A DNA stretch of 64,000 nucleotides from Eledone cirrhosa (lineage: Eukaryota), in contig OZ024743.1 of NCBI GenBank assembly GCA_964016885.1, positions 253,580,001-253,644,000 on the forward strand. Direction: 5' to 3'. Shown here one piece after another: positions 8,508 through 48,081 of the stretch (its first letter is position 1; each line of letters starts with the position of its first letter). The notes below the pieces were generated by a model. That model was not told the origin of the DNA. It saw only the letters and a program-made list of their open reading frames with translations, and did not search any database. Made by a program: the position numbers and the translations under genes.

Positions 8508-8538
<31 letters not shown>

Positions 8539-19945: not shown

Positions 19946-20610
19946 GTGAGAGTGAAAGAGAGAGATTGCTAATTTATCAGTTTGTGATCTTCAGTCTGTC
20001 AGTAGGGCAATGAATCTGTGTTTGAAGTTGATATCACCCGGTTGCCAGTGAAGTAAGTATTGCTACAGGTCGCATCCCAGATAAGGGGCCTTTCCTCTTC
20101 AAAAAGAGAAAATTATTAAGCAGTCCTACCTTTTGCCGTCTCCTCAGTCTAACCGTACCGGTACAAGTCTAATGTTCTCAAACATATGAGCAGATGAATT
20201 ATATTATATAAACAATGTAAACATGCTTTACTTTATTCCAGTACTGTAATTCAACTGTAAATATATCTTCAGTTTATCTTGCCGAATAGTTTCCTATTTT
20301 CAATTTGCTTAGTAATAGCTTTATTTATGTATACATTTATTTATTTTCCCCCTATTTAACTACTTGAATTTATTCAATTTATGTAATATTCTTTGCATAA
20401 AAACACTTGCAGATATTAATCAAGAGTTTTCTCTTTCCTCGAGACAAGAATTTTCATTTTATTTAAACAATTTTCTTTCGGAACATCTAAATTTTAATTC
20501 TCAGAGAAATTCGCCAAATATATGCAACAGCAACAATGACAGCGACAATGATGACGATGAAAATGATGATAACATCAACAACAACAACAACAACAACAGC
20601 AACAATAATT

Positions 20611-20661
<51 letters not shown>

Positions 20662-20931
20662 ATTTCTTTATTAACCACAAGGGTTTACATAAAGTAGACA
20701 TTAAGGACAGTGCAGGACAATGCAGGACGGTACAAATGGGCATTTCTGCGTGTAAAAAAAAAAAAAAAAAAAAAACAGAGGATGTAACAAAAATAACAAT
20801 GAAAATAACAATGAAAAATTCCCCAATAGGGGGGAGACTTCGGAGGGACATTTGTGGAGAAAGCCCAGTAAAAAGCCACAATGACCCTGACCACCAAGGC
20901 AAGTGCCCTCTCCCAGTTTTCCACCTTTAGT

Positions 20932-23900
20932 TTACAGATATATACTCAGAGTCGGCCCATTCACTCGGGCCATTCTTGCTTCTCTCACCCATCTTTCAAC
21001 AAAATGCTGGGAAGAGAGCACTTCCTTCTCTACTCTGATTTTCCTTTTCAAATGAAATTTGAAAAAGTCAATCAGAGCATCACCGAAGAGGTAAGTGCTC
21101 GTCTTCAGCCCTTTCAAACGTGTCCACCATACTATCTCTTTCGCCATGGCCACCAGACAGATAAAAACTGCCTGCCCTTCCCGGCTAAAGGAGGAGGGCG
21201 GGGCAATCCTCACGATAGACTCAGATGATAGCTGGATCCGTCCTAAACGCGACAGCAGGTGTTCGACATAAACCCACAAGTCAGCAATTTTCGGACACTG
21301 GACGAGTGCGTGCAGGACGGTTTCGTCGCCCTGCGCGCATCTCGGACATGCCCGGCTGACGGCACCTCCATGCCTGTAGAGTTTATCCCGAACTGGCAAG
21401 GCTCCTCGGTAGCACTGCCAGGCCAGAGATTTCTGGAAGTTGTCCATAGGCCCTGGCCCGAAAGTTCTTCCGAAGAGATTGGCTAGTTGATTTTCGTCGA
21501 CGCCTAGAGTTTCCCCAAGTACGTCGTCGCTCTTCCCCTCCACTAATCCTCTATAGAACGCCGAAGTGGAGTTTCCACCGATCACATTGCCCGATTGGTC
21601 GAGGGCTGTGAGCGCCTGAAGACATTCCAGTCTCCAGGCGCTCCCTCTCGGTCTTCGCTTGACCCAGGACTGCAGCTCCGTCAAGGAAACGAGCTGGGGA
21701 AAAACGCGTCTAGCAAACGGCGACCACACCTGATCACCGTCGAGGAAGAGGTGGAGATGTCGTAGCCTGTGCGCGTGCCTGCGCATCATCAGCCACGGCA
21801 TGCCCAGCCCTCCACGTAGCGGGTGTTGACAACAGATGGACCGCCTGACCATCGGAGCACGTCCCTTCCACAAAAAGCGAAAGAGCAAACGCTCCAGCGC
21901 AGTCAGGCGAGGCTTAGGACAAGGTACGACGGTTAGGCGGTAGCAGATGACAGACGCGATGTACGCGTTAGCCACCTCCGCTCGACCTTTCAGGGATAGC
22001 TTCCTCTCCGCCCATTTCTGGGTGAGAGAAGCCACCCTGCTCGTCACCTCGTCCCAGTTTTTGTCCGTCTGGAGGTCCGGACCGAACCAGACCCCTAGCA
22101 ATTTAACCGGTCCGTCCGTCCAGCGCCCGACGACGCTGTTGGACGGCATGGACCTGCCTCTCCAGGTGCCGAGCTGCAGGCCCACTGACTTTTCCTGGTT
22201 GATCATTGCTCCTGTCACCGCTTCGTATTCTCTTAGTGTAGTGCCGATCGCCTCGATGTGTTTGGCGTTCGACACCACTACGGTGACATCGTCCGCATGT
22301 GCTGACACGGATCTTCCGCATCCTAGTTCGCGCGGGACTCCCCTCAACGTCTCCAGTTTGTGCAGTAATGGCTCGAGAGTCAATACGTACAAGAGGGACG
22401 AGAGGGGACATCCTTGGCGGACCGAGCGCATGATGTTGAACGGTTCCGACAGGTGACCGTTCACTCTCACCACAGAGCAGATGTCGCTGTGCATGGCAGC
22501 GATCCAGCCTCTGAAGACGGGCCCAAAGCCAGCCGCCCTCAGGACTGCCGCTAGGTAACGATGGTCGACCCTATCGAAAGCTTTCGACTGATCTAAATTG
22601 ATCAAAGACCCACCCGTGCCAGGTTCCCTAGCTACCCTCTCTACGATGTATCGCATGAGGTGGAGGTTGTCGTGGATGGATCTGTCGGGAATGGCGCATG
22701 TCTGCGCCTCTCCCACCAGACCACCAACGACAAGCGCCAACCTCTTTGCTAGCACCTTGGCCAAAATCTTAAACTCTGTGTTTAGCAGAGTTATGGGCCG
22801 GAAATTGTCTATGTTATCCCCCTTGTTCGGATCCTTTCTCAGCAGTGCCACCGCTCCTCGGCTCACAGAACTGGGAATTCTCCCGTTCTGTTGCCAGTTG
22901 CAGTAGACGTCCGCCAAGAGGCCTCCGAACAAGTCTGGCATCTGTACGTAAAGTTCATAGGGCAGACCATCCAAACCAGGCGATTTACCCCTTGTGCAGC
23001 CAGTCATTGCCTCCCGTACTTCAGCGGCTGTTATCGGCTTTTCGCAACACTTCGCCTCAGTGGCCGAGAGCCGCGGCAGTCCGTCGAGGTAGACACTAAA
23101 GTCCATCCCTCTACCCGGCCCCCCGCTGCCCCCGAACAGCTGAGCGAAGTGTCGCTGAAAAGCTTCACACATTTGCCCGGGATCGAGTAGCATGCGCCCG
23201 TCGTGTTCCACCAAAGACCGGATCGTGGCTTTGTTGCCACGACGCGCCTCCGCCACTCGGGCCCATTGAACGGCTTTCGTCCCCTCGTGTCTGAGAGCAC
23301 GCACCCTAGCTCTGACAACGCAGCCTTCGTGCTTTGCATTGAAGAATTGGTCAAGGGCCAATTTCGCCGCAAGCACGTCGGTCGCAATGCCTTTGCTAAG
23401 CGCCTCGTCTAATTTTCTAACTAGTTCTCCCTCTGCTCTATTTTTCTCTATTGCTAAAGCCTTACTAAACCTAATCGATTCTATTTTAATCGCTCTTTTC
23501 AGAGCAAACCACCACTTGTTGTTGACGATGGCCCCCGTCAACGCCCGCTTAACTAGTTCGCTAATCCGGTCTCTGTAGGCCTTGCGCGCTGGTAAGGACG
23601 CGTTTAGCTTCCAGTAGCCGGGTCCTCGTCTATGAAGCCTATCTATGTCAAGCACACAGGTCACGAATTTGTGGTCCGTGTAGCTGACTATCTTGAATTG
23701 TGGACAGCCTATGCTAGACCTATCTATTTCCCTACAAAATACTCTATCTAGATATGATCTGGATGACCCTATGCGGTTTGTCCAAGTCCACATTGGCACA
23801 TTCGGGAAATCCAATCGGTACCTGTCAGACAGTTCAAAACGCCTGAGCAGGTTGGTGAGGCTCTTGCACCCTCCACCCCTATCCGCTAATCCCACACAGT

Positions 23901-24351
23901 CCCAGCGTGCATCTAAGATCCCGTTCCAGTCGCCCACTAACACTAAAGAGCGGGACGTTCCAAGAAAGGTCTCCAGACGCCGGAAGAAATCAGGCCGCCC
24001 TGCTCCTGTCGGGGCATAGACGGCCACTAGCCTGAAAGCTTGCCCGTCTCCGCTGGTCACGTCCAGCACCACCAGCTTACCCTCTGGGTCCAGGAAGATG
24101 GCCCGTATGGCGAGATCCAAACCTCTCCGAAAAAGCACAGCAACTCCTCCACCCGATCCAGGACGGCTGGGAGATGCGTACACATCGTAGCCGCCGAAGA
24201 TCGGTGCGAAGGCCCGTGCTTCGGAGATTCTGGTCTCGCTGATGGCCACTACATCTATGTTTAGTGACCTGAGGTCGTTGAGCAGGTGACCCTGCTTCCA
24301 TGACGACCCCAAGCCACGCGCATTTATGCTGCCTATTCTGAGTGAGGTCAT
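20932..24351 (-). CDS. ORF2p: APE endonuclease + reverse transcriptase + C-terminal CCHC, 1139 aa (copy 1, HADD)
   Basis: APE motifs SINARGL, SETR, YAP, GDWN, LDRV, TDHK; RT motifs KSPGLDGLP, FRPITLLNTEFKIL, DQSKAFDRV, VRQGCPLS, HADD, LLGV; C-terminal CPRC..ETVLHALVQC. Confidence 0.95.
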   Translation of the reverse strand: MTSLRIGSINARGLGSSWKQGHLLNDLRSLNIDVVAISETRISEARAFAPIFGGYDVYASPSRPGSGGGVAVLFRRGLDLAIRAIFLDPEGKLVVLDVTSGDGQAFRLVAVYAPTGAGRPDFFRRLETFLGTSRSLVLVGDWNGILDARWDCVGLADRGGGCKSLTNLLRRFELSDRYRLDFPNVPMWTWTNRIGSSRSYLDRVFCREIDRSSIGCPQFKIVSYTDHKFVTCVLDIDRLHRRGPGYWKLNASLPARKAYRDRISELVKRALTGAIVNNKWWFALKRAIKIESIRFSKALAIEKNRAEGELVRKLDEALSKGIATDVLAAKLALDQFFNAKHEGCVVRARVRALRHEGTKAVQWARVAEARRGNKATIRSLVEHDGRMLLDPGQMCEAFQRHFAQLFGGSGGPGRGMDFSVYLDGLPRLSATEAKCCEKPITAAEVREAMTGCTRGKSPGLDGLPYELYVQMPDLFGGLLADVYCNWQQNGRIPSSVSRGAVALLRKDPNKGDNIDNFRPITLLNTEFKILAKVLAKRLALVVGGLVGEAQTCAIPDRSIHDNLHLMRYIVERVAREPGTGGSLINLDQSKAFDRVDHRYLAAVLRAAGFGPVFRGWIAAMHSDICSVVRVNGHLSEPFNIMRSVRQGCPLSSLLYVLTLEPLLHKLETLRGVPRELGCGRSVSAHADDVTVVVSNAKHIEAIGTTLREYEAVTGAMINQEKSVGLQLGTWRGRSMPSNSVVGRWTDGPVKLLGVWFGPDLQTDKNWDEVTSRVASLTQKWAERKLSLKGRAEVANAYIASVICYRLTVVPCPKPRLTALERLLFRFLWKGRAPMVRRSICCQHPLRGGLGMPWLMMRRHAHRLRHLHLFLDGDQVWSPFARRVFPQLVSLTELQSWVKRRPRGSAWRLECLQALTALDQSGNVIGGNSTSAFYRGLVEGKSDDVLGETLGVDENQLANLFGRTFGPGPMDNFQKSLAWQCYRGALPVRDKLYRHGGAVSRACPRCAQGDETVLHALVQCPKIADLWVYVEHLLSRLGRIQLSSESIVRIAPPSSFSREGQAVFICLVAMAKEIVWWTRLKGLKTSTYLFGDALIDFFKFHLKRKIRVEKEVLSSQHFVERWVREARMARVNGPTLSIYL

Positions 24352-24386
24352 GTTTAAAATAGAGTGGAAAAGATGGGAAAGACCAC

Positions 24387-26480
24387 TTACCGTACTTTTG
24401 GTAGAGGAGGGATGGTTTTTACATCCCTTTTCACTTGATCGTCTGGTGAAGGGACCGTTGAATCGTCCCTTCGGCTGGTCGTCGGCTCTTCTAAGAGAAT
24501 GTCTGAATATACTCTTCGATTGATGGTTCCTCCTAGGTCCCTGAAATCACCAACTGCGTTGGGGAATTTCGTTTTAATGTTTGTGTATTGTTTCTGTGCT
24601 ATTTTTAGCAGTCTTATGTTAGTTGGCGTTTTGATTGGTGCTGGTATTATGTAGTCCTGTTGTGAAATGTCTGTGTGTTCAATTATGTAAGTCATTAGTT
24701 TCTTGTTGTGTGTGTTTATTGCCGTGCATTTGTTTTTCTGGGGGTGGGGTGTGGTTCTGCTATTTTCTTGTCGTTGTTGCTGGGTGTGTGTGTTTTGTTG
24801 TTGTGTTTGCGATGTTGGTGCTTGTGGTGGTGGTGTTGAAGGTGTTGTTGGCGGTGGGGTTGTCGCCGGTGGTGATGGTGGTGCTGGTGTGGGTGGTGAT
24901 GGTGTTGGTGGTGTTGCTGCTGTGGGTCTCTTTGCAGTAGACTTTACCCTTTTCTCATTTCTTTCCTCCCTTTTCAAAGGCGACGATGCGCTGCTTCTGC
25001 GTTTGTGCCTTCTTGCGACCTTTTGCCATCCCTCTCCCACCTCACACTCCATGTCTGATTCTGTAAGGTCGGGGAGGGGTACCAGCTCCACTCTTTCACT
25101 TGTTGTTGTTGGTGATGTTTGCACTGGAGTCTCTGTTGCAGCTGCATTTGGTATTGCTGTTGTTGTTGTTAATATTTCCACTGCTGCTGCTGTCTTTGAT
25201 TTCCGTGGAGTGGGTATGGGTGCCACGGACCTATCGTTCCTGGTTGCCGCTTGTCCTGTTGCTGGTAGCCGTGGAGCCGGATTCGGAAGGAGGGGGGTTT
25301 TCTCCTTTCTCAGGGTCTTCTCGTTGCAGAAGGCCCTGAGGTGAGTCTTCGATCCACAGCGAAAGCATTTCGGGCGTTTGCCCTCAACACTTATGGGCAG
25401 TTGAGTGCCGTTATCGAAGTCTATCACATCCGGGATAGCTTCGATGCACTCCTGGTTAGTTTGGATTAGCATCTCAATGGAGGAGCCGACCCAATCTTCT
25501 CTTACTTTTTTCTGTACTTGCAGTACAGTTGTTTTGTCCTCGATTCCGACGAGGACAGACGCGGCCAGCCAAGAAGGGGTCATTCCGGGGGGGACGTGGG
25601 TCAGTTTGACCCTCACAATTTTTTGCCCGCAGTAGGAGGGCACCAACACCATTTCCTCGCTCCTTAGGGTCACTACTGATTGGGCCTTTGCCTCCTGGGG
25701 TGTGGCAAAAAGTACGTCTACGGTGGCGTATTTTTTGCCTCGGGTGATGTGCGTTTTCCTCTGCCACACAGACCCCAAGGCTTTTTGTATTTGGGCCTCT
25801 GTGGCTCTTTCCACCCTACGGGATTTTGTACTTACTGTACGGTACGTGACCGTACAGTGCTCTTGGGTTTCGAAAAAATTTTTCGCTGCCTTGCAGATTG
25901 CTCGGTGTCCGTTCTTTGTCACCATCTTCTTCGCTTCCTCTAATTCCTCATTTGTTATGAGGATTGTTTCCAAGTTTTTCGCAATACCTGCAAATGAGAT
26001 TGGTTTTTCTCTGCTGTTGTTGTTGTCGTCAGAGCTGCTGGTACTTTTGTTGCTGCAGGTACTACGACTACTGCCTCCGCCGCTGTTGCTGTGGTTGTTG
26101 TTGGTGTTGCTGCTGCTAATGCTGTTGTTGTTTATGCTGCTGGTGATGCTGTTGCGGCTGCTACTGTTGTTTTCATTGTCACTGTTGCTGTTGTTATTAC
26201 GGCTGCTACTGCTATTATTCCTGACGTCAGACGAATGAACTGGGTTTTCGTATTTCCCGCACACCTGTTTCGTCGCTGTCGTCGTCGTCGTGGAGAAACC
26301 TTGCACGCTTTGCACGAGACTTTTCTTTTCTTTCGTCGCTTGCGAAAGAGAAGGGAGGGAGAGAGACACATTTAAAGAAGGGAGGGAGAGAGACAATCTT
26401 CTCTCTGCTGTAGTGATGATTGAGGAAGAAGAAGACGGAATGAGTGGGAGTGACGTATGAAATTTCTTTTTGGTAGCCAT
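24387..26480 (-). CDS. ORF1p gag-like RNA-binding protein (RRM-like region + one CCHC knuckle), 697 aa from first ATG (copy 1)
   Basis: CFRCGSKTHLRAFC = CX2CX4HX4C after an RRM-like region (VRVKLTHVPP...IPDVI); N/S-rich and P/T-rich linkers; first ATG at 26480 (the track start at 26513 is TTG); 35-nt spacer to ORF2. Confidence 0.9.
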   Translation of the reverse strand: MATKKKFHTSLPLIPSSSSSIITTAERRLSLSLPSLNVSLSLPSLSQATKEKKSLVQSVQGFSTTTTTATKQVCGKYENPVHSSDVRNNSSSSRNNNSNSDNENNSSSRNSITSSINNNSISSSNTNNNHSNSGGGSSRSTCSNKSTSSSDDNNNSREKPISFAGIAKNLETILITNEELEEAKKMVTKNGHRAICKAAKNFFETQEHCTVTYRTVSTKSRRVERATEAQIQKALGSVWQRKTHITRGKKYATVDVLFATPQEAKAQSVVTLRSEEMVLVPSYCGQKIVRVKLTHVPPGMTPSWLAASVLVGIEDKTTVLQVQKKVREDWVGSSIEMLIQTNQECIEAIPDVIDFDNGTQLPISVEGKRPKCFRCGSKTHLRAFCNEKTLRKEKTPLLPNPAPRLPATGQAATRNDRSVAPIPTPRKSKTAAAVEILTTTTAIPNAAATETPVQTSPTTTSERVELVPLPDLTESDMECEVGEGWQKVARRHKRRSSASSPLKREERNEKRVKSTAKRPTAATPPTPSPPTPAPPSPPATTPPPTTPSTPPPQAPTSQTQQQNTHTQQQRQENSRTTPHPQKNKCTAINTHNKKLMTYIIEHTDISQQDYIIPAPIKTPTNIRLLKIAQKQYTNIKTKFPNAVGDFRDLGGTINRRVYSDILLEEPTTSRRDDSTVPSPDDQVKRDVKTIPPLPKVR

Positions 26481-26693
26481 GTTTTTTTGTTTAAAATGAA
26501 ATTTTGGGTACAAAACCCCAATAACTGGTTATTTAACCCCGAAGGGCCAAATAACGGACAGAAAGACCCCTCTCACGAGGAGGAGGGTGTCTTTATCAAC
26601 AATTTGGTTCAAGTTTTAAACAATTTACAATTGTTTTAACGGTTAAAAATTACTATACCTTACAGAGCCGAGCCTCCGTCAACCATGGCATTC

Positions 26694-26752
<59 letters not shown>

Positions 26753-27012
26753 TTTCTTTATTAACCACAAGGGTTTACATAAAGTAGACATTAAGGACAG
26801 TGCAGGACAATGCAGGACGGTACAAATGGGCATTTCTGCGTGTAAAAAAACAAAAACAGAGGATGTAACAAAAATAACAATGAAAATAACAATGAAAAAT
26901 TCCCCAATAGGGGGGAGACTTCGGAGGGACATTTGTGGAGAAAGCCCAGTAAAAAGCCACAATGACCCTGACCACCAAGGCAAGTGCCCTCTCCCAGTTT
27001 TCCACCTTTAGT

Positions 27013-30000
27013 TTACAGATATATACTCAGAGTCGGCCCATTCACTCGGGCCATTCTTGCTTCTCTCACCCATCTTTCAACAAAATGCTGGGAAGAGAGC
27101 ACTTCCTTCTCTACTCTGATTTTCCTTTTCAAATGAAATTTGAAAAAGTCAATCAGAGCATCACCGAAGAGGTAAGTGCTCGTCTTCAGCCCTTTCAAAC
27201 GTGTCCACCATACTATCTCTTTCGCCATGGCCACCAGACAGATAAAAACTGCCTGCCCTTCCCGGCTAAAGGAGGAGGGCGGGGCAATCCTCACGATAGA
27301 CTCAGATGATAGCTGGATCCGTCCTAAACGCGACAGCAGGTGTTCGACATAAACCCACAAGTCAGCAATTTTCGGACACTGGACGAGTGCGTGCAGGACG
27401 GTTTCGTCGCCCTGCGCGCATCTCGGACATGCCCGGCTGACGGCACCTCCATGCCTGTAGAGTTTATCCCGAACTGGCAAGGCTCCTCGGTAGCACTGCC
27501 AGGCCAGAGATTTCTGGAAGTTGTCCATAGGCCCTGGCCCGAAAGTTCTTCCGAAGAGATTGGCTAGTTGATTTTCGTCGACGCCTAGAGTTTCCCCAAG
27601 TACGTCGTCGCTCTTCCCCTCCACTAATCCTCTATAGAACGCCGAGGTGGAGTTTCCACCGATCACATTGCCCGATTGGTCGAGGGCTGTGAGCGCCTGA
27701 AGACATTCCAGTCTCCAGGCGCTCCCTCTCGGTCTTCGCTTGACCCAGGACTGCAGCTCCGCCAAGGAAACGAGCTGGGGAAAAACGCGTCTAGCAAACG
27801 GCGACCACACCTGATCACCGTCGAGGAAGAGGTGGAGATGTCGTAGCCTGAGCGCGTGCCTGCGCATCATCAGCCACGGCATGCCCAGCCCTCCACGTAG
27901 CGGGTGTTGACAACAGATGGACCGCCTGACCATCGGAGCACGTCCCTTCCACAAAAAGCGAAAGAGCAAACGCTCCAGCGCAGTCAGGCGAGGCTTAGGA
28001 CAAGGTACGACGGTTAGGCGGTAGCAGATGACAGACGCGATGTACGCGTTAGCCACCTCCGCTCGACCTTTCAGGGATAGCTTCCTCTCCGCCCATTTCT
28101 GGGTGAGAGAAGCCACCCTGCTCGTCACCTCGTCCCAGTTTTTGTCCGTCTGGAGGTCCGGACCGAACCAGACCCCTAGCAATTTAACCGGTCCGTCCGT
28201 CCAGCGCCCGACGACGCTGTTGGACGGCATGGACCTGCCTCTCCAGGTGCCGAGCTGCAGGCCCACTGACTTTTCCTGGTTGATCATTGCTCCTGTCACC
28301 GCTTCGTATTCTCTTAGTGTAGTGCCGATCGCCTCGATGTGTTTGGCGTTCGACACCAGTACGGTGACATCGTCCGCATATGCTGACACGGATCTTCCGC
28401 ATCCTAGTTCGCGCGGGACTGCCCTCAACGTCTCCAGTTTGTGCAGTAATGGCTCGAGAGTCAATACGTACAAGAGGGACGAGAGGGGACATCCTTGGCG
28501 GACCGAGCGCATGATGTTGAACGGTTCCGACAGGTGACCGTTCACTCTCACCACAGAGCAGATGTCGCTGTGCATGGCAGCGATCCAGCCTCTGAAGACG
28601 GGCCCAAAGCCAGCCGCCCTCAGGACTGCCGCTAGGTAACGATGGTCGACCCTATCGAAAGCTTTCGACTGATCTAAATTGATCAAGGACCCACCCGTGC
28701 CAGGTTCCCTAGCTACCCTCTCTACGATGTATCGCATGAGGTGGAGGTTGTCGTGGATGGATCTGTCGGGAATGGCGCATGTCTGCGCCTCTCCCACCAG
28801 ACCACCAACGACAAGCGCCAACCTCTTTGCTAGCACCTTGGCCAAAATCTTAAACTCTGTGTTTAGCAGAGTTATGGGCCGGAAGTTGTCTATGTTATCC
28901 CCCTTGTTCGGATCCTTTCTCAGCAGTGCCACCGCTCCTCGGCTCACAGAACTGGGAATTCTCCCGTTCTGTTGCCAGTTGCAGTAGACGTCCGCCAAGA
29001 GGCCTCCGAACAAGTCTGGCATCTGTACGTAAAGTTCATAGGGCAGACCATCCAAACCAGGCGATTTACCCCTTGTGCAGCCAGTCATTGCCTCCCGTAC
29101 TTCAGCGGCTGTTATCGGCTTTTCGCAACACCTCGCCTCAGTGGCCGAGAGCCGCGGCAGTCCGTCGAGGTAGACACTAAAGTCCATCCCTCTACCCGTC
29201 CCCCCGCTGCCCCCGAACAGCTGAGCGAAGTGTCGCTGAAAAGCTTCACACATTTGCCCGGGATCGAGTAGCATGCGCCCGTCGTGGTCCACCAAAGACC
29301 GGATCGTGGCTTTGTTGCCACGACGCGCCTCCGCCACTCGGGCCCATTGAACGGCTTTTGTCCCCTCGTGTCTGAGAGCACGCACCCTAGCTCTGACAAC
29401 GCAGCCTTCGTGCTTTGCATTGAAGAATTGGTCAAGGGCCAATTTCGCCGCAAGCACGTCGGTCGCAATGCCTTTGCTAAGCGCCTCGTCTAATTTTCTA
29501 ACTAGTTCTCCCTCTGCTCTATTTTTCTCTATTGCTAAAGCCTTACTAAACCTAATCGATTCTATTTTAATCGCTCTTTTCAGAGCAAACCACCACTTGT
29601 TGTTGACGATGGCCCCCGTCAACGCCCGCTTAACTAGTTCGCTAATCCGGTCTCTGTAGGCCTTGCGCGCTGGTAAGGACGCGTTTAGCTTCCAGTAGCC
29701 GGGTCCTCGTCTATGAAGCCTATCTATGTCAAGCACACAGGTCACGAATTTGTGGTCCGTGTAGCTGACTATCTTGAATTGTGGACAGCCTATGCTAGAC
29801 CTATCTATTTCCCTACAAAATACTCTATCTAGATATGATCTGGATGACCCTATGCGGTTTGTCCAAGTCCACATTGGCACATTCGGGAAATCCAATCGGT
29901 ACCTGTCAGACAGTTCAAAACGCCTGAGCAGGTTGGTGAGGCTCTTGCACCCTCCACCCCTATCCGCTAATCCCACACAGTCCCAGCGTGCATCTAAGAT

Positions 30001-30432
30001 CCCGTTCCAGTCGCCCACTAACACTAAAGAGCGGGACGTTCCAAGAAAGGTCTCCAGACGCCGGAAGAAATCAGGCCGCCCTGCTCCTGTCGGGGCATAG
30101 ACGGCCACTAGCCTGAAAGCTTGCCCGTCTCCGCTGGTCACGTCCAGCACCACCAGCTTACCCTCTGGGTCCAGGAAGATGGCCCGTATGGCGAGATCCA
30201 AACCTCTCCGAAAAAGCACAGCAACTCCTCCACCCGATCCAGGACGGCTGGGAGATGCGTACACATCGTAGCCGCCGAAGATCGGTGCGAAGGCCCGTGC
30301 TTCGGAGATTCTGGTCTCGCTGATGGCCACTACATCTATGTTTAGTGACCTGAGGTCGTTGAGCAGGTGACCCTGCTTCCATGACGACCCCAAGCCACGC
30401 GCATTTATGCTGCCTATTCTGAGTGAGGTCAT
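27013..30432 (-). CDS. ORF2p APE-RT-CCHC, 1139 aa (copy 2)
   Basis: Same motifs with canonical YADD. Confidence 0.96.
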   Translation of the reverse strand: MTSLRIGSINARGLGSSWKQGHLLNDLRSLNIDVVAISETRISEARAFAPIFGGYDVYASPSRPGSGGGVAVLFRRGLDLAIRAIFLDPEGKLVVLDVTSGDGQAFRLVAVYAPTGAGRPDFFRRLETFLGTSRSLVLVGDWNGILDARWDCVGLADRGGGCKSLTNLLRRFELSDRYRLDFPNVPMWTWTNRIGSSRSYLDRVFCREIDRSSIGCPQFKIVSYTDHKFVTCVLDIDRLHRRGPGYWKLNASLPARKAYRDRISELVKRALTGAIVNNKWWFALKRAIKIESIRFSKALAIEKNRAEGELVRKLDEALSKGIATDVLAAKLALDQFFNAKHEGCVVRARVRALRHEGTKAVQWARVAEARRGNKATIRSLVDHDGRMLLDPGQMCEAFQRHFAQLFGGSGGTGRGMDFSVYLDGLPRLSATEARCCEKPITAAEVREAMTGCTRGKSPGLDGLPYELYVQMPDLFGGLLADVYCNWQQNGRIPSSVSRGAVALLRKDPNKGDNIDNFRPITLLNTEFKILAKVLAKRLALVVGGLVGEAQTCAIPDRSIHDNLHLMRYIVERVAREPGTGGSLINLDQSKAFDRVDHRYLAAVLRAAGFGPVFRGWIAAMHSDICSVVRVNGHLSEPFNIMRSVRQGCPLSSLLYVLTLEPLLHKLETLRAVPRELGCGRSVSAYADDVTVLVSNAKHIEAIGTTLREYEAVTGAMINQEKSVGLQLGTWRGRSMPSNSVVGRWTDGPVKLLGVWFGPDLQTDKNWDEVTSRVASLTQKWAERKLSLKGRAEVANAYIASVICYRLTVVPCPKPRLTALERLLFRFLWKGRAPMVRRSICCQHPLRGGLGMPWLMMRRHALRLRHLHLFLDGDQVWSPFARRVFPQLVSLAELQSWVKRRPRGSAWRLECLQALTALDQSGNVIGGNSTSAFYRGLVEGKSDDVLGETLGVDENQLANLFGRTFGPGPMDNFQKSLAWQCYRGALPVRDKLYRHGGAVSRACPRCAQGDETVLHALVQCPKIADLWVYVEHLLSRLGRIQLSSESIVRIAPPSSFSREGQAVFICLVAMAKEIVWWTRLKGLKTSTYLFGDALIDFFKFHLKRKIRVEKEVLSSQHFVERWVREARMARVNGPTLSIYL

Positions 30433-30467
30433 GTTTAAAATAGAGTGGAAAAGATGGGAAAGACCAC

Positions 30468-32561
30468 TTACCGTACTTTTGGTAGAGGAGGGATGGTTTT
30501 TACATCCCTTTTCACTTGATCGTCTGGTGAAGGGACCGTTGAATCGTCCCTTCGGCTGGTCGTCGGCTCTTCTAAGAGAATGTCTGAATATACTCTTCGA
30601 TTGATGGTTCCTCCTAGGTCCCTGAAATCACCAACTGCGTTGGGGAATTTCGTTTTAATGTTTGTGTATTGTTTCTGTGCTATTTTTAGCAGTCTTATGT
30701 TAGTTGGCGTTTTGATTGGTGCTGGTATTATGTAGTCCTGTTGTGAAATGTCTGTGTGTTCAATTATGTAAGTCATTAGTTTCTTGTTGTGTGTGTTTAT
30801 TGCCGTGCATTTGTTTTTCTGGGGGTGGGGTGTGGTTCTGCTATTTTCTTGTCGTTGTTGCTGGGTGTGTGTGTTTTGTTGTTGTGTTTGCGATGTTGGT
30901 GCTTGTGGTGGTGGTGTTGAAGGTGTTGTTGGCGGTGGGGTTGTCGCCGGTGGTGATGGTGGTGCTGGTGTGGGTGGTGATGGTGTTGGTGGTGTTGCTG
31001 CTGTGGGTCTCTTTGCAGTAGACTTTACCCTTTTCTCATTTCTTTCCTCCCTTTTCAAAGGCGACGATGCGCTGCTTCTGCGTTTGTGCCTTCTTGCGAC
31101 CTTTTGCCATCCCTCTCCCACCTCACACTCCATGTCTGATTCTGTAAGGTCGGGGAGGGGTACCAGCTCCACTCTTTCACTTGTTGTTGTTGGTGATGTT
31201 TGCACTGGAGTCTCTGTTGCAGCTGCATTTGGTATTGCTGTTGTTGTTGTTAATATTTCCACTGCTGCTGCTGTCTTTGATTTCCGTGGAGTGGGTATGG
31301 GTGCCACGGACCTATCGTTCCTGGTTGCCGCTTGTCCTGTTGCTGGTAGCCGTGGAGCCGGATTCGGAAGGAGGGGGGTTTTCTCCTTTCTCAGGGTCTT
31401 CTCGTTGCAGAAGGCCCTGAGGTGAGTCTTCGATCCACAGCGAAAGCATTTCGGGCGTTTGCCCTCAACACTTATGGGCAGTTGAGTGCCGTTATCGAAG
31501 TCTATCACATCCGGGATAGCTTCGATGCACTCCTGGTTAGTTTGGATTAGCATCTCAATGGAGGAGCCGACCCAATCTTCTCTTACTTTTTTCTGTACTT
31601 GCAGTACAGTTGTTTTGTCCTCGATTCCGACGAGGACAGACGCGGCCAGCCAAGAAGGGGTCATTCCGGGGGGGACGTGGGTCAGTTTGACCCTCACAAT
31701 TTTTTGCCCGCAGTAGGAGGGCACCAACACCATTTCCTCGCTCCTTAGGGTCACTACTGATTGGGCCTTTGCCTCCTGGGGTGTGGCAAAAAGTACGTCT
31801 ACGGTGGCGTATTTTTTGCCTCGGGTGATGTGCGTTTTCCTCTGCCACACAGACCCCAAGGCTTTTTGTATTTGGGCCTCTGTGGCTCTTTCCACCCTAC
31901 GGGATTTTGTACTTACTGTACGGTACGTGACCGTACAGTGCTCTTGGGTTTCGAAAAAATTTTTCGCTGCCTTGCAGATTGCTCGGTGTCCGTTCTTTGT
32001 CACCATCTTCTTCGCTTCCTCTAATTCCTCATTTGTTATGAGGATTGTTTCCAAGTTTTTCGCAATACCTGCAAATGAGATTGGTTTTTCTCTGCTGTTG
32101 TTGTTGTCGTCAGAGCTGCTGGTACTTTTGTTGCTGCAGGTACTACGACTACTGCCTCCGCCGCTGTTGCTGTGGTTGTTGTTGGTGTTGCTGCTGCTAA
32201 TGCTGTTGTTGTTTATGCTGCTGGTGATGCTGTTGCGGCTGCTACTGTTGTTTTCATTGTCACTGTTGCTGTTGTTATTACGGCTGCTACTGCTATTATT
32301 CCTGACGTCAGACGAATGAACTGGGTTTTCGTATTTCCCGCACACCTGTTTCGTCGCTGTCGTCGTCGTCGTGGAGAAACCTTGCACGCTTTGCACGAGA
32401 CTTTTCTTTTCTTTCGTCGCTTGCGAAAGAGAAGGGAGGGAGAGAGACACATTTAAAGAAGGGAGGGAGAGAGACAATCTTCTCTCTGCTGTAGTGATGA
32501 TTGAGGAAGAAGAAGACGGAATGAGTGGGAGTGACGTATGAAATTTCTTTTTGGTAGCCAT
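30468..32561 (-). CDS. ORF1p (copy 2)
   Basis: Same protein as copy 1 ORF1. Confidence 0.9.
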   Translation of the reverse strand: MATKKKFHTSLPLIPSSSSSIITTAERRLSLSLPSLNVSLSLPSLSQATKEKKSLVQSVQGFSTTTTTATKQVCGKYENPVHSSDVRNNSSSSRNNNSNSDNENNSSSRNSITSSINNNSISSSNTNNNHSNSGGGSSRSTCSNKSTSSSDDNNNSREKPISFAGIAKNLETILITNEELEEAKKMVTKNGHRAICKAAKNFFETQEHCTVTYRTVSTKSRRVERATEAQIQKALGSVWQRKTHITRGKKYATVDVLFATPQEAKAQSVVTLRSEEMVLVPSYCGQKIVRVKLTHVPPGMTPSWLAASVLVGIEDKTTVLQVQKKVREDWVGSSIEMLIQTNQECIEAIPDVIDFDNGTQLPISVEGKRPKCFRCGSKTHLRAFCNEKTLRKEKTPLLPNPAPRLPATGQAATRNDRSVAPIPTPRKSKTAAAVEILTTTTAIPNAAATETPVQTSPTTTSERVELVPLPDLTESDMECEVGEGWQKVARRHKRRSSASSPLKREERNEKRVKSTAKRPTAATPPTPSPPTPAPPSPPATTPPPTTPSTPPPQAPTSQTQQQNTHTQQQRQENSRTTPHPQKNKCTAINTHNKKLMTYIIEHTDISQQDYIIPAPIKTPTNIRLLKIAQKQYTNIKTKFPNAVGDFRDLGGTINRRVYSDILLEEPTTSRRDDSTVPSPDDQVKRDVKTIPPLPKVR

Positions 32562-32774
32562 GTTTTTTTGTTTAAAATGAAATTTTGGGTACAAAACCCC
32601 AATAACTGGTTATTTAACCCCGAAGGGCCAAATAACGGACAGAAAGACCCCTCTCACGAGGAGGAGGGTGTCTTTATCAACAATTTGGTTCAAGTTTTAA
32701 ACAATTTACAATTGTTTTAACGGTTAAAAATTACTATACCTTACAGAGCCGAGCCTCCGTCAACCATGGCATTC

Positions 32775-32833
<59 letters not shown>

Positions 32834-33093
32834 TTTCTTTATTAACCACAAGGGTTTACATAAAGTAGACATTAAGGACAGTGCAGGACAATGCAGGACG
32901 GTACAAATGGGCATTTCTGCGTGTAAAAAAACAAAAACAGAGGATGTAACAAAAATAACAATGAAAATAACAATGAAAAATTCCCCAATAGGGGGGAGAC
33001 TTCGGAGGGACATTTGTGGAGAAAGCCCAGTAAAAAGCCACAATGACCCTGACCACCAAGGCAAGTGCCCTCTCCCAGTTTTCCACCTTTAGT

Positions 33094-36000
33094 TTACAGA
33101 TATATACTCAGAGTCGGCCCATTCACTCGGGCCATTCTTGCTTCTCTCACCCATCTTTCAACAAAATGCTGGGAAGAGAGCACTTCCTTCTCTACTCTGA
33201 TTTTCCTTTTCAAATGAAATTTGAAAAAGTCAATCAGAGCATCACCGAAGAGGTAAGTGCTCGTCTTCAGCCCTTTCAAACGTGTCCACCATACTATCTC
33301 TTTCGCCATGGCCACCAGACAGATAAAAACTGCCTGCCCTTCCCGGCTAAAGGAGGAGGGCGGGGCAATCCTCACGATAGACTCAGATGATAGCTGGATC
33401 CGTCCTAAACGCGACAGCAGGTGTTCGACATAAACCCACAAGTCAGCAATTTTCGGACACTGGACGAGTGCGTGCAGGACGGTTTCGTCGCCCTGCGCGC
33501 ATCTCGGACATGCCCGGCTGACGGCACCTCCATGCCTGTAGAGTTTATCCCGAACTGGCAAGGCTCCTCGGTAGCACTGCCAGGCCAGAGATTTCTGGAA
33601 GTTGTCCATAGGCCCTGGCCCGAAAGTTCTTCCGAAGAGATTGGCTAGTTGATTTTCGTCGACGCCTAGAGTTTCCCCAAGTACGTCGTCGCTCTTCCCC
33701 TCCACTAATCCTCTATAGAACGCCGAGGTGGAGTTTCCACCGATCACATTGCCCGATTGGTCGAGGGCTGTGAGCGCCTGAAGACATTCCAGTCTCCAGG
33801 CGCTCCCTCTCGGTCTTCGCTTGACCCAGGACTGCAGCTCCGCCAAGGAAACGAGCTGGGGAAAAACGCGTCTAGCAAACGGCGACCACACCTGATCACC
33901 GTCGAGGAAGAGGTGGAGATGTCGTAGCCTGAGCGCGTGCCTGCGCATCATCAGCCACGGCATGCCCAGCCCTCCACGTAGCGGGTGTTGACAACAGATG
34001 GACCGCCTGACCATCGGAGCACGTCCCTTCCACAAAAAGCGAAAGAGCAAACGCTCCAGCGCAGTCAGGCGAGGCTTAGGACAAGGTACGACGGTTAGGC
34101 GGTAGCAGATGACAGACGCGATGTACGCGTTAGCCACCTCCGCTCGACCTTTCAGGGATAGCTTCCTCTCCGCCCATTTCTGGGTGAGAGAAGCCACCCT
34201 GCTCGTCACCTCGTCCCAGTTTTTGTCCGTCTGGAGGTCCGGACCGAACCAGACCCCTAGCAATTTAACCGGTCCGTCCGTCCAGCGCCCGACGACGCTG
34301 TTGGACGGCATGGACCTGCCTCTCCAGGTGCCGAGCTGCAGGCCCACTGACTTTTCCTGGTTGATCATTGCTCCTGTCACCGCTTCGTATTCTCTTAGTG
34401 TAGTGCCGATCGCCTCGATGTGTTTGGCGTTCGACACCAGTACGGTGACATCGTCCGCATATGCTGACACGGATCTTCCGCATCCTAGTTCGCGCGGGAC
34501 TGCCCTCAACGTCTCCAGTTTGTGCAGTAATGGCTCGAGAGTCAATACGTACAAGAGGGACGAGAGGGGACATCCTTGGCGGACCGAGCGCATGATGTTG
34601 AACGGTTCCGACAGGTGACCGTTCACTCTCACCACAGAGCAGATGTCGCTGTGCATGGCAGCGATCCAGCCTCTGAAGACGGGCCCAAAGCCAGCCGCCC
34701 TCAGGACTGCCGCTAGGTAACGATGGTCGACCCTATCGAAAGCTTTCGACTGATCTAAATTGATCAAGGACCCACCCGTGCCAGGTTCCCTAGCTACCCT
34801 CTCTACGATGTATCGCATGAGGTGGAGGTTGTCGTGGATGGATCTGTCGGGAATGGCGCATGTCTGCGCCTCTCCCACCAGACCACCAACGACAAGCGCC
34901 AACCTCTTTGCTAGCACCTTGGCCAAAATCTTAAACTCTGTGTTTAGCAGAGTTATGGGCCGGAAGTTGTCTATGTTATCCCCCTTGTTCGGATCCTTTC
35001 TCAGCAGTGCCACCGCTCCTCGGCTCACAGAACTGGGAATTCTCCCGTTCTGTTGCCAGTTGCAGTAGACGTCCGCCAAGAGGCCTCCGAACAAGTCTGG
35101 CATCTGTACGTAAAGTTCATAGGGCAGACCATCCAAACCAGGCGATTTACCCCTTGTGCAGCCAGTCATTGCCTCCCGTACTTCAGCGGCTGTTATCGGC
35201 TTTTCGCAACACCTCGCCTCAGTGGCCGAGAGCCGCGGCAGTCCGTCGAGGTAGACACTAAAGTCCATCCCTCTACCCGTCCCCCCGCTGCCCCCGAACA
35301 GCTGAGCGAAGTGTCGCTGAAAAGCTTCACACATTTGCCCGGGATCGAGTAGCATGCGCCCGTCGTGGTCCACCAAAGACCGGATCGTGGCTTTGTTGCC
35401 ACGACGCGCCTCCGCCACTCGGGCCCATTGAACGGCTTTTGTCCCCTCGTGTCTGAGAGCACGCACCCTAGCTCTGACAACGCAGCCTTCGTGCTTTGCA
35501 TTGAAGAATTGGTCAAGGGCCAATTTCGCCGCAAGCACGTCGGTCGCAATGCCTTTGCTAAGCGCCTCGTCTAATTTTCTAACTAGTTCTCCCTCTGCTC
35601 TATTTTTCTCTATTGCTAAAGCCTTACTAAACCTAATCGATTCTATTTTAATCGCTCTTTTCAGAGCAAACCACCACTTGTTGTTGACGATGGCCCCCGT
35701 CAACGCCCGCTTAACTAGTTCGCTAATCCGGTCTCTGTAGGCCTTGCGCGCTGGTAAGGACGCGTTTAGCTTCCAGTAGCCGGGTCCTCGTCTATGAAGC
35801 CTATCTATGTCAAGCACACAGGTCACGAATTTGTGGTCCGTGTAGCTGACTATCTTGAATTGTGGACAGCCTATGCTAGACCTATCTATTTCCCTACAAA
35901 ATACTCTATCTAGATATGATCTGGATGACCCTATGCGGTTTGTCCAAGTCCACATTGGCACATTCGGGAAATCCAATCGGTACCTGTCAGACAGTTCAAA

Positions 36001-36513
36001 ACGCCTGAGCAGGTTGGTGAGGCTCTTGCACCCTCCACCCCTATCCGCTAATCCCACACAGTCCCAGCGTGCATCTAAGATCCCGTTCCAGTCGCCCACT
36101 AACACTAAAGAGCGGGACGTTCCAAGAAAGGTCTCCAGACGCCGGAAGAAATCAGGCCGCCCTGCTCCTGTCGGGGCATAGACGGCCACTAGCCTGAAAG
36201 CTTGCCCGTCTCCGCTGGTCACGTCCAGCACCACCAGCTTACCCTCTGGGTCCAGGAAGATGGCCCGTATGGCGAGATCCAAACCTCTCCGAAAAAGCAC
36301 AGCAACTCCTCCACCCGATCCAGGACGGCTGGGAGATGCGTACACATCGTAGCCGCCGAAGATCGGTGCGAAGGCCCGTGCTTCGGAGATTCTGGTCTCG
36401 CTGATGGCCACTACATCTATGTTTAGTGACCTGAGGTCGTTGAGCAGGTGACCCTGCTTCCATGACGACCCCAAGCCACGCGCATTTATGCTGCCTATTC
36501 TGAGTGAGGTCAT
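33094..36513 (-). CDS. ORF2p APE-RT-CCHC, 1139 aa (copy 3)
   Basis: Same protein as copy 2. Confidence 0.96.
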   Translation of the reverse strand: MTSLRIGSINARGLGSSWKQGHLLNDLRSLNIDVVAISETRISEARAFAPIFGGYDVYASPSRPGSGGGVAVLFRRGLDLAIRAIFLDPEGKLVVLDVTSGDGQAFRLVAVYAPTGAGRPDFFRRLETFLGTSRSLVLVGDWNGILDARWDCVGLADRGGGCKSLTNLLRRFELSDRYRLDFPNVPMWTWTNRIGSSRSYLDRVFCREIDRSSIGCPQFKIVSYTDHKFVTCVLDIDRLHRRGPGYWKLNASLPARKAYRDRISELVKRALTGAIVNNKWWFALKRAIKIESIRFSKALAIEKNRAEGELVRKLDEALSKGIATDVLAAKLALDQFFNAKHEGCVVRARVRALRHEGTKAVQWARVAEARRGNKATIRSLVDHDGRMLLDPGQMCEAFQRHFAQLFGGSGGTGRGMDFSVYLDGLPRLSATEARCCEKPITAAEVREAMTGCTRGKSPGLDGLPYELYVQMPDLFGGLLADVYCNWQQNGRIPSSVSRGAVALLRKDPNKGDNIDNFRPITLLNTEFKILAKVLAKRLALVVGGLVGEAQTCAIPDRSIHDNLHLMRYIVERVAREPGTGGSLINLDQSKAFDRVDHRYLAAVLRAAGFGPVFRGWIAAMHSDICSVVRVNGHLSEPFNIMRSVRQGCPLSSLLYVLTLEPLLHKLETLRAVPRELGCGRSVSAYADDVTVLVSNAKHIEAIGTTLREYEAVTGAMINQEKSVGLQLGTWRGRSMPSNSVVGRWTDGPVKLLGVWFGPDLQTDKNWDEVTSRVASLTQKWAERKLSLKGRAEVANAYIASVICYRLTVVPCPKPRLTALERLLFRFLWKGRAPMVRRSICCQHPLRGGLGMPWLMMRRHALRLRHLHLFLDGDQVWSPFARRVFPQLVSLAELQSWVKRRPRGSAWRLECLQALTALDQSGNVIGGNSTSAFYRGLVEGKSDDVLGETLGVDENQLANLFGRTFGPGPMDNFQKSLAWQCYRGALPVRDKLYRHGGAVSRACPRCAQGDETVLHALVQCPKIADLWVYVEHLLSRLGRIQLSSESIVRIAPPSSFSREGQAVFICLVAMAKEIVWWTRLKGLKTSTYLFGDALIDFFKFHLKRKIRVEKEVLSSQHFVERWVREARMARVNGPTLSIYL

Positions 36514-36548
36514 GTTTAAAATAGAGTGGAAAAGATGGGAAAGACCAC

Positions 36549-38642
36549 TTACCGTACTTTTGGTAGAGGAGGGATGGTTTTTACATCCCTTTTCACTTGA
36601 TCGTCTGGTGAAGGGACCGTTGAATCGTCCCTTCGGCTGGTCGTCGGCTCTTCTAAGAGAATGTCTGAATATACTCTTCGATTGATGGTTCCTCCTAGGT
36701 CCCTGAAATCACCAACTGCGTTGGGGAATTTCGTTTTAATGTTTGTGTATTGTTTCTGTGCTATTTTTAGCAGTCTTATGTTAGTTGGCGTTTTGATTGG
36801 TGCTGGTATTATGTAGTCCTGTTGTGAAATGTCTGTGTGTTCAATTATGTAAGTCATTAGTTTCTTGTTGTGTGTGTTTATTGCCGTGCATTTGTTTTTC
36901 TGGGGGTGGGGTGTGGTTCTGCTATTTTCTTGTCGTTGTTGCTGGGTGTGTGTGTTTTGTTGTTGTGTTTGCGATGTTGGTGCTTGTGGTGGTGGTGTTG
37001 AAGGTGTTGTTGGCGGTGGGGTTGTCGCCGGTGGTGATGGTGGTGCTGGTGTGGGTGGTGATGGTGTTGGTGGTGTTGCTGCTGTGGGTCTCTTTGCAGT
37101 AGACTTTACCCTTTTCTCATTTCTTTCCTCCCTTTTCAAAGGCGACGATGCGCTGCTTCTGCGTTTGTGCCTTCTTGCGACCTTTTGCCATCCCTCTCCC
37201 ACCTCACACTCCATGTCTGATTCTGTAAGGTCGGGGAGGGGTACCAGCTCCACTCTTTCACTTGTTGTTGTTGGTGATGTTTGCACTGGAGTCTCTGTTG
37301 CAGCTGCATTTGGTATTGCTGTTGTTGTTGTTAATATTTCCACTGCTGCTGCTGTCTTTGATTTCCGTGGAGTGGGTATGGGTGCCACGGACCTATCGTT
37401 CCTGGTTGCCGCTTGTCCTGTTGCTGGTAGCCGTGGAGCCGGATTCGGAAGGAGGGGGGTTTTCTCCTTTCTCAGGGTCTTCTCGTTGCAGAAGGCCCTG
37501 AGGTGAGTCTTCGATCCACAGCGAAAGCATTTCGGGCGTTTGCCCTCAACACTTATGGGCAGTTGAGTGCCGTTATCGAAGTCTATCACATCCGGGATAG
37601 CTTCGATGCACTCCTGGTTAGTTTGGATTAGCATCTCAATGGAGGAGCCGACCCAATCTTCTCTTACTTTTTTCTGTACTTGCAGTACAGTTGTTTTGTC
37701 CTCGATTCCGACGAGGACAGACGCGGCCAGCCAAGAAGGGGTCATTCCGGGGGGGACGTGGGTCAGTTTGACCCTCACAATTTTTTGCCCGCAGTAGGAG
37801 GGCACCAACACCATTTCCTCGCTCCTTAGGGTCACTACTGATTGGGCCTTTGCCTCCTGGGGTGTGGCAAAAAGTACGTCTACGGTGGCGTATTTTTTGC
37901 CTCGGGTGATGTGCGTTTTCCTCTGCCACACAGACCCCAAGGCTTTTTGTATTTGGGCCTCTGTGGCTCTTTCCACCCTACGGGATTTTGTACTTACTGT
38001 ACGGTACGTGACCGTACAGTGCTCTTGGGTTTCGAAAAAATTTTTCGCTGCCTTGCAGATTGCTCGGTGTCCGTTCTTTGTCACCATCTTCTTCGCTTCC
38101 TCTAATTCCTCATTTGTTATGAGGATTGTTTCCAAGTTTTTCGCAATACCTGCAAATGAGATTGGTTTTTCTCTGCTGTTGTTGTTGTCGTCAGAGCTGC
38201 TGGTACTTTTGTTGCTGCAGGTACTACGACTACTGCCTCCGCCGCTGTTGCTGTGGTTGTTGTTGGTGTTGCTGCTGCTAATGCTGTTGTTGTTTATGCT
38301 GCTGGTGATGCTGTTGCGGCTGCTACTGTTGTTTTCATTGTCACTGTTGCTGTTGTTATTACGGCTGCTACTGCTATTATTCCTGACGTCAGACGAATGA
38401 ACTGGGTTTTCGTATTTCCCGCACACCTGTTTCGTCGCTGTCGTCGTCGTCGTGGAGAAACCTTGCACGCTTTGCACGAGACTTTTCTTTTCTTTCGTCG
38501 CTTGCGAAAGAGAAGGGAGGGAGAGAGACACATTTAAAGAAGGGAGGGAGAGAGACAATCTTCTCTCTGCTGTAGTGATGATTGAGGAAGAAGAAGACGG
38601 AATGAGTGGGAGTGACGTATGAAATTTCTTTTTGGTAGCCAT
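36549..38642 (-). CDS. ORF1p (copy 3)
   Basis: Same protein as copy 1 ORF1. Confidence 0.9.
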   Translation of the reverse strand: MATKKKFHTSLPLIPSSSSSIITTAERRLSLSLPSLNVSLSLPSLSQATKEKKSLVQSVQGFSTTTTTATKQVCGKYENPVHSSDVRNNSSSSRNNNSNSDNENNSSSRNSITSSINNNSISSSNTNNNHSNSGGGSSRSTCSNKSTSSSDDNNNSREKPISFAGIAKNLETILITNEELEEAKKMVTKNGHRAICKAAKNFFETQEHCTVTYRTVSTKSRRVERATEAQIQKALGSVWQRKTHITRGKKYATVDVLFATPQEAKAQSVVTLRSEEMVLVPSYCGQKIVRVKLTHVPPGMTPSWLAASVLVGIEDKTTVLQVQKKVREDWVGSSIEMLIQTNQECIEAIPDVIDFDNGTQLPISVEGKRPKCFRCGSKTHLRAFCNEKTLRKEKTPLLPNPAPRLPATGQAATRNDRSVAPIPTPRKSKTAAAVEILTTTTAIPNAAATETPVQTSPTTTSERVELVPLPDLTESDMECEVGEGWQKVARRHKRRSSASSPLKREERNEKRVKSTAKRPTAATPPTPSPPTPAPPSPPATTPPPTTPSTPPPQAPTSQTQQQNTHTQQQRQENSRTTPHPQKNKCTAINTHNKKLMTYIIEHTDISQQDYIIPAPIKTPTNIRLLKIAQKQYTNIKTKFPNAVGDFRDLGGTINRRVYSDILLEEPTTSRRDDSTVPSPDDQVKRDVKTIPPLPKVR

Positions 38643-38855
38643 GTTTTTTTGTTTAAAATGAAATTTTGGGTACAAAACCCCAATAACTGGTTATTTAACC
38701 CCGAAGGGCCAAATAACGGACAGAAAGACCCCTCTCACGAGGAGGAGGGTGTCTTTATCAACAATTTGGTTCAAGTTTTAAACAATTTACAATTGTTTTA
38801 ACGGTTAAAAATTACTATACCTTACAGAGCCGAGCCTCCGTCAACCATGGCATTC

Positions 38856-38915
<60 letters not shown>

Positions 38916-39499
38916 CATAATGATAGATGATGATAATAAAAATGACAATAATATAAATTATGTGATCTTGTTTTCGTTGTTTGCTTCTTTGTTTTATTCT
39001 CAGTGTGTCTAAAGCTGCACTAAACTCTTCTATTTCTAAAACTCTTTTAGAAGTAGAATTACTCTAGAGATCAAAAATATTGTTGAGAACCAATTGATTC
39101 CTAAATTACACTGCTTCAGACAATATATTTTCAGGAGATATATTTAGAAATTCTGCACATAGTCATTTCAGCATATTATAATAATCTATATTATAACTGA
39201 AGAGAATTGTTGTATGTTCGACACACAAATGCTAGAATTTGGCAGGAATATTCTAAATTTTCTCTGAGAATTCGTAGAACGCAAAGGTAAGACAAAGAAT
39301 TGGGGAGGGGCAAATTGTCTAAAATAATGCATTCATTCAGGATTCAGGATTCTATGTCAATAATATTATCTGCCTCACTCATTACTCCCTCTATTACACA
39401 CACACTCATACACACACCCATGCACCCAGACACACACACTCACACACACAAACACACACACATATACATACATACATACATACATGGTGGCTGCCAACT

Positions 39500-48029: not shown

Positions 48030-48077
<48 letters not shown>

Positions 48078-48081
<4 letters not shown>

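Follow-up and report, generated by a model that had tools for sequence, protein, structure and literature searches.

LINEs that insert into simple repeats have been described before. Kibi, in (TC)n, Koshi, in (TTC)n, and the crocodilian Tx1 elements, in (TTCC)n or (TTTC)n, are two-ORF, APE-type LINEs that lie inside one simple repeat at both ends, and a LINE has been counted as target-specific when one sequence type makes up more than 20% of its flanks (PMC4494074). For Dong, a member of the R4 clade, TAA microsatellites have been reported as the target (PMC3812793), and R4-clade elements encode a restriction-like endonuclease (PMC4640811). Tandem arrays are known from Drosophila R1, in which full-length copies follow each other head to tail, parted by target sequence, with double insertion as the source of dimers and further growth into large arrays; repeated insertion and unequal exchange have both been published for R1 and other elements (PMC2718515, PMC5932611). 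In human L1, full-length copies form a small share, more than 99% overall being truncated or inverted (PMC4859970), and for short L1 templated insertions a related switch of the cDNA onto nearby genomic DNA has been proposed (bioRxiv 10.1101/2024.08.27.596794), a kind of event with which L1/L1 chimeras are grouped. The annotation of Octopus vulgaris includes 13 recently active L1-Tx1 and five Dong-R4 families, and the word ‘target’ is absent from its main text (PMC13282606). Our comparison also drew on PMC3747384, PMC9115989 and PMC5753468. A Tx1 family targeting ATT or AAT was not found in the literature searched, and Repbase or Kojima and Fujiwara 2004 may hold one. Here, we describe a young L1-group LINE of Eledone cirrhosa residing in (AAT)n, whose arrays, we believe, are likely to arise through a nick on the AAT strand and, sometimes, a switch of the cDNA onto a resident neighbour. 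Tandem arrays and microsatellite targeting are already known, and the unusual part lies in the 5' stretches shared by neighbouring copies and in the duplicated spacers between them.

The window, that is the whole 64-kb stretch of DNA analysed, corresponds to C4:253.58-253.64 Mb of a 3.0-Gb assembly, the single assembly from which all counts given here were taken. It contains three full-length copies in one orientation (minus strand) inside a degenerate AAC/GAT/AAT run: copy 1 at 20661-26693 (6033 bp), copy 2 at 26751-32774 (6024 bp) and copy 3 at 32832-38855 (6024 bp), with a period of 6081 bp. Each carries an open ORF2 of 1139 aa and an open ORF1 of 697 aa, likewise on the minus strand, at 20932-24351 and 24387-26480 in copy 1, 27013-30432 and 30468-32561 in copy 2, and 33094-36513 and 36549-38642 in copy 3. 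On the plus strand, the copies are parted by two perfect 57-bp (AAT)19 spacers (26694-26750 and 32775-32831). The host microsatellite on the left (20525-20660), which forms the 3' flank of copy 1, is degenerate AAC/GAT followed by a 57-bp AAT tract with two irregular units (20604-20660), and that on the right (38856-38953), the 5' flank of copy 3, begins with a perfect (AAT)19 (38856-38912) and continues as degenerate AAA/CAT/GAT. All four AAT tracts bordering the copies are, in other words, 57 bp long. The coordinates and the six open frames agree with those of an earlier sequence-only reading of this locus, which had also placed AAT at every junction.

Copies 2 and 3 do not differ at a single position across 6024 bp. 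Copy 1 is set apart from them by 13 substitutions and by an A run that is 9 nt longer; every one of these changes falls within 20754-23278, a clustering in the 3' 2.6 kb with a chance of about 2e-5. Its remaining 5' 3.4 kb, together with the adjoining (AAT)19 (23279-26750, minus strand), is identical in all three copies. When compared with 30 other full-length copies, the 3' 2.6 kb holds five private alleles in copy 1 and six in copies 2 and 3, and the 5' 3.4 kb holds two private alleles common to all three; the 3' part of the array therefore has two origins and the 5' part one. Genome-wide, one haplotype of two alleles is confined to copies 2 and 3, and the 3' part of these copies can therefore not be traced to a separate source. 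The RT motif reads HADD in copy 1 and YADD in copies 2 and 3, so that an open frame is no proof that all three copies are intact. HADD was tried as a lineage mark for copy 1 and rejected: it occurs at 17 places, and six of six examined are old copies (137-244 differences) that do not carry the other alleles of copy 1. Of the 12 ORF2 differences that separate copy 1 from copy 2, eight alter the encoded residue, which would resemble neutral ageing in place and would also fit a later gene conversion.

The sequence-only reading had seen the window array as the product of self-stacking. Many other tandem arrays, described below, are in line with that idea; for the window itself it does not hold, since copies 2 and 3 are identical and share the 5' part of copy 1, and judged from these alleles the trimer is not three independent insertions. 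As to the third copy, a real unit and an assembly over-count are both possible; the public data consisted of the contigs of four runs and the raw RAD reads of two, neither of which covered an outer junction of the window array. The 5' UTR (32560-32774 of the window, minus strand) folds somewhat better than shuffled sequences (z -2.7), and a search of the element's 5' end for a ribozyme or known RNA gave no Rfam match near threshold.

The element belongs to the L1 group of LINEs, as judged from its ORF2, which has an N-terminal APE endonuclease, a reverse transcriptase (RT) and a C-terminal CCHC finger, the layout that defines L1-group non-LTR retrotransposons (Pfam Exo_endo_phos 3e-14, RVT_1 1e-28 and zf-RVT 7e-08; in copy 1 the domains are assigned through near-identity to copy 2). 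The solved structure closest to ORF2 is that of human L1 ORF2p (E 8e-53, residues 5-855), with R2 proteins at 2e-21 or weaker, in a comparison in which L1 and R2 were the only LINE proteins among the matches. NCBIfam gave only a weak group II RT match, and none of 46 homologues is named. The N-terminal APE domain sets the element apart from the Dong/R4 clade, which was considered and rejected. ORF1 has low-complexity ends, an RNA-binding-like centre and a single CX2CX4HX4C knuckle. The type I ORF1 expected of Tx1 combines an RRM-like domain with a CCHC knuckle in place of Transposase_22. The present ORF1 matched neither Transposase_22 nor RRM in Pfam, and its look-alikes in the Atlas, at 0.91-0.93, are CCHC and ZCCHC3-type RNA-binding clusters. 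ORF1s of the CCHC/ZCCHC3-like type have been called consistent with Tx1 (PMC5203782). Membership of Tx1 is plausible, as it would fit both the ORF1 type and the target specificity. Compared with Kibi, Koshi and the crocodilian Tx1 elements, the present family differs in its target, (ATT)n/(AAT)n, and in that about half of its copies keep the 5' end.

Throughout the genome, 1628 exact 5' ends and 3534 exact 3' ends of the family were counted by exact patterns. Sixty consecutive 3'-end loci on C1 were taken as a sample, from which L097 and, as a neighbour, L089 were left out. Of the remaining 58, 32 are full to the 5' end, 19 show a truncation or an interruption, and a sister subfamily accounts for the other seven. 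The 32 full-length copies are 94 to 99.6% identical to copy 2, and many of them keep both ORFs. The family is young. The sister copies (L068, L079, L083, L085, L087, L102 and L103) share ORF2 with it and have a divergent 5' UTR and ORF1, with the break near the ORF1/ORF2 border. A further relative with a variant 3' end lies head to tail with the family in the same tracts (flanks of L012, L063 and L084).

Insertion of the family is almost certainly targeted to (AAT)n. Directly beyond the 5' end, (AAT)4 is found in 1571 of the 1628 cases (96.5%), far above the 20% of flanks by which target-specific LINEs are recognised, with the 5' side included, and (AAT)6 in 1489. On both strands of the 3.0 Gb there are 65,958 V(AAT)5 starts, a lower bound, so that the number of 5' ends expected beside AAT by chance is far below one. 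All 32 sampled full-length copies have a 5' tract of at least six AAT units. At the breaks of the 19 truncated or interrupted copies, at least four units are present in six and at least two in seven, with none in 12, and seven of eight sister-subfamily copies with a divergent 5' end adjoin AAT as well; the tract is therefore most probably an insertion target and not just a part of the element. Several of the 12 AAT-less breaks run into other LINE fragments, where deletions of the target or later deletions are possible. The sequence-only reading had proposed a young (ATT)n-specific family, an idea that would fall if other copies had random 5' flanks and no further arrays were found; the counts of exact ends, the AAT flanks at 96.5% of the 5' ends and the frequent arrays bear this proposal out. 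Its idea of a tail that regenerates the target is not supported. On the 3' side, six of the 32 full-length copies have at most three AAT units, two of these having none, and two 3' ends are joined directly to AAC; at seven junctions that carry a mark, the spacer and the sequence flanking the following copy are the same, with zero AAT units added. The tracts are therefore read as split or duplicated target rather than as a tail of the element's own making.

The target is of the same repeat class as that reported for Dong. At six loci (flanks of L005, L016, L022, L094, L110 and L137), the family shares its AAT tracts with LINE fragments that are truncated at the 5' end and oriented the other way; these encode a CCHC finger and a PD-(D/E)xK-like motif, and we take them to be Dong/R4-like. 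In contrast to Dong, the family described here encodes an APE endonuclease, and it lies in the tract in the orientation opposite to that of the Dong-like fragments. Four truncated copies (L066, L096, L101 and L105) lead straight, with no AAT at the joint, into a Dong-like fragment that is itself truncated and oppositely oriented, and target deletion, later deletion or a template switch could each lie behind such joints.

Tandem arrays are frequent. A same-family 3' end lies within 110 nt of the 5' end in 14 of the 32 sampled full-length copies, and 30 junctions with exactly eight AAT units occur genome-wide; these two counts stand in for a genome-wide number of junctions of any spacer length. 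The largest array described here (C4:357,932,481-358,059,754; L149-L163) consists of 21 full-length copies arranged head to tail over 127 kb, with both ORFs open in 20 of them and 0-42 differences between copies, in a mosaic pattern. One AAC mark is shared by 13 of its 20 spacers and is found at six places elsewhere; export of the marked leader from this array was considered and rejected, 13 of the 19 matches to the mark lying within the array itself. An array of six copies is found at C2:166.146-166.183 Mb. Most neighbours differ along their whole length, often by 40-250 substitutions, and repeated insertion is therefore the main route of array formation. The pattern expected of unequal crossover (A, B-left/A-right, B) was seen in one trimer on C2 and in a probable one on C4. 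We regard an origin of the arrays from repeated insertion plus recombination as very probable. As in R1 arrays, neighbours of independent origin are parted by duplicated target; the element itself is not R1. R1 spacers are fixed 14- or 33-nt duplications of 28S sequence at one rDNA site, whereas here the targets are tens of thousands of dispersed tracts, the spacers vary, and the duplications include kilobases of the neighbour's 5' part as well as unrelated inserts. The likeness to the telomeric R1-clade elements TRAS and SART, drawn loosely and for an interstitial site in the sequence-only reading, is not the closest one: the window lies at 253.6 Mb of a 378.8-Mb contig, copies are dispersed along C1 rather than placed at chromosome ends, and the R1 tandem arrays and Kibi, Koshi and Dong are closer parallels.

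Neighbouring copies share more of their 5' than of their 3' sequence in one of two samples. In the first, identical 5' runs of at least 500 nt were found in 10 of 23 neighbour pairs (seven of 14 arrays) and in 2 of 630 unrelated pairs; 3' runs showed no excess (4/23 against 67/630), with the proviso that L089, L138 and L139 have no recognised 3' end, so that only their 5' runs are meaningful. The second sample was chosen by its eight-unit spacer and comprised 12 pairs, left from 20 junctions after removal of eight with a truncated, deleted or sister-type partner. Here, 5' runs were found in 2 of 12 neighbour pairs and 8 of 390 other pairs and 3' runs in 2 of 12 and 21 of 390, a much weaker polarity; the choice of short spacers may favour other routes. 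Taken together, 12 of 35 neighbour pairs have an identical 5' stretch of at least 0.5 kb, with the reservation that pairs inside one array are non-independent. The 5'-polar effect is real but affects a minority of pairs. The length of the identical 5' run ranges from 25 nt to 3.7 kb. In addition, marked spacers are duplicated exactly in seven of 30 copies beside a resident and in none of 41 others (p 0.0015), a comparison in which only some of the 41 control copies have a mark near enough to reveal a duplication, the flanks used being mostly 300-550 nt long. Three arrays contain, between two copies, an unrelated insert that is found again behind the second copy. These recurring inserts are two fragments that we take, from their motifs, to be Dong-like (369/370 nt and, over the part shown, 420/420 nt), and a truncated copy with its tract, making up a whole 232-nt spacer.

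In the proposed model, elements would enter AAT tracts in a single orientation, with both ends inside the tract, as is seen in the family. The APE domain would nick the AAT strand, which we infer from the orientation of the elements and from standard target-primed reverse transcription, and the nick would prime reverse transcription with little or no tail addition. A tract left at the 5' side of a resident would then serve as target for new copies, which are indeed found there and often belong to another subfamily. In a minority of events, primed from a nick where the resident's 5' tract ends on the side away from the resident, the cDNA, which would have the sense of the AAT-bearing strand, would leave its RNA and pair with the other, homologous strand of the resident lying just behind the nick. 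The 5' part of the resident and everything up to the nick would be copied and the cDNA joined there, so that the new copy reaches full length and the spacer is duplicated. The product of such a switch would have the order A, spacer, B-left/A-right, spacer, which matches what is observed, and a single switch onto a resident would account for both this layout and the duplicated inserts. Dimers could grow further through unequal crossover. Applied to the window, copy 1 would be the likely resident, in copy 2 a new 3' 2.6 kb would have been extended along copy 1 to the 5' end, which duplicated the 19-unit tract, and copy 3 would be a later duplicate of copy 2, produced by crossover, by a second early switch or in the assembly. 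That new copies are completed on a neighbour in this way seems to us, from the sequences compared, somewhat the better bet. The switch proposed for L1 templated insertions concerns 22 cases with templates typically below 250 bp, whereas the one proposed here would be regular and kilobases long, and would be favoured by the homologous copy immediately beside the target.

The same targeting and repeated insertion could also be combined with a later origin of the shared 5' parts, through gene conversion, unequal crossover, or duplication of a whole unit followed by replacement of its 3' part by new cDNA. Crossover-type trimers are present (copies 3, 4 and 5 of the C2 array; L193-L195), the 21-copy array is a mosaic, and the route that has been published runs from double insertion to unequal exchange (PMC5932611). 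At the window locus, later gene conversion is a live rival, given that the 3' part of copy 2 cannot be traced to a separate source and that eight of 12 ORF2 differences change a residue, and the five to six private changes in each of the 3' parts of copies 1 and 2 would suit it as well. Crossover, however, predicts equal sharing of 3' and 5' parts and requires three copies, whereas in the first sample the sharing is 5'-polar and some of the arrays are apparent dimers, and crossover alone yields no duplicate of a unique spacer behind the last copy. We consider later exchange an unlikely source of the shared 5' parts, albeit one to be taken seriously, and prefer completion of the new copy on a resident neighbour.

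An artefact of assembly or polishing in near-identical 6-kb repeats could explain part of the pattern, above all the lack of differences in copy 3 and in the shared 5' stretches. Copy 2 matches copy 3 throughout, spacers included, the copy number would need a read spanning about 15.6 kb (from 23278 to past 38912), and public reads gave no confirmation of the junctions. Most neighbours nevertheless keep many differences and the spacers keep locus-specific marks; the shared stretches hold alleles that 30 other copies lack and that would be erased if polishing drew the sequence toward a family average, and only one of 35 sampled pairs is fully identical. An artefact of this kind is improbable. 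Less probable still, to the point of being scarcely credible, is that the RNA itself brings in the (ATT)n of both ends, as a read-through leader and tail, with no need of a sequence-specific nick, and that arrays are concatemers formed via read-through RNA, template jumping or a circle. Such an origin could explain why 5' tracts are almost never short (at least six units in 32/32) while 3' tracts can have 0-3 units (6/32), and why the window spacers are equal at 19 units; R1 RNA, moreover, uses upstream target sequence for precise 5' joints (PMC2718515). Against it, AAT tracts also end some truncated copies, no units have been added at the marked junctions, the AAC mark that characterises the 21-copy array recurs at only six other places, and neighbours mostly differ. 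A short leader may still aid 5' joining.

The joining of LINE 5' ends is still poorly understood. Here a single genome offers hundreds of junctions with marks, so that switch points, nick positions and duplicated spacers can be counted by comparing neighbours. With this family, (ATT)n joins the list of targets of APE-type LINEs, as a parallel to Dong, and an APE domain presumably so specific for a triplet repeat would be well suited to studies of endonuclease specificity. The family also presents every step between a monomer and 127 kb of arrayed full-length copies, and so shows directly how a retrotransposon can give rise to a satellite. As a tentative wider reading, which we hold with slightly less than even confidence, the LINE may evade 5' truncation by using resident copies as repair templates, thereby multiplying intact 5' ends, duplicating the DNA in between and seeding dispersed, coding-intact satellites, in a target whose other strand is attacked by an unrelated LINE with a restriction-like endonuclease.

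Other features of the window were noted in passing. Two tandem SINE-like repeats of about 210 bp lie at 18908-19330, and the same repeat is found elsewhere inside AAT tracts beside the LINE family. An array of six to seven units of about 100-106 bp with CAC/CAT/CAA triplets occupies 8178-9000. At 48077-49893 there is a 1.8-kb element with inverted terminal repeats of about 645 bp, 98% identical, and with (TA)n at its left end, and an inverted repeat of about 350 bp, 92% identical and with arms 1.6 kb apart, is found at 60718-63008.
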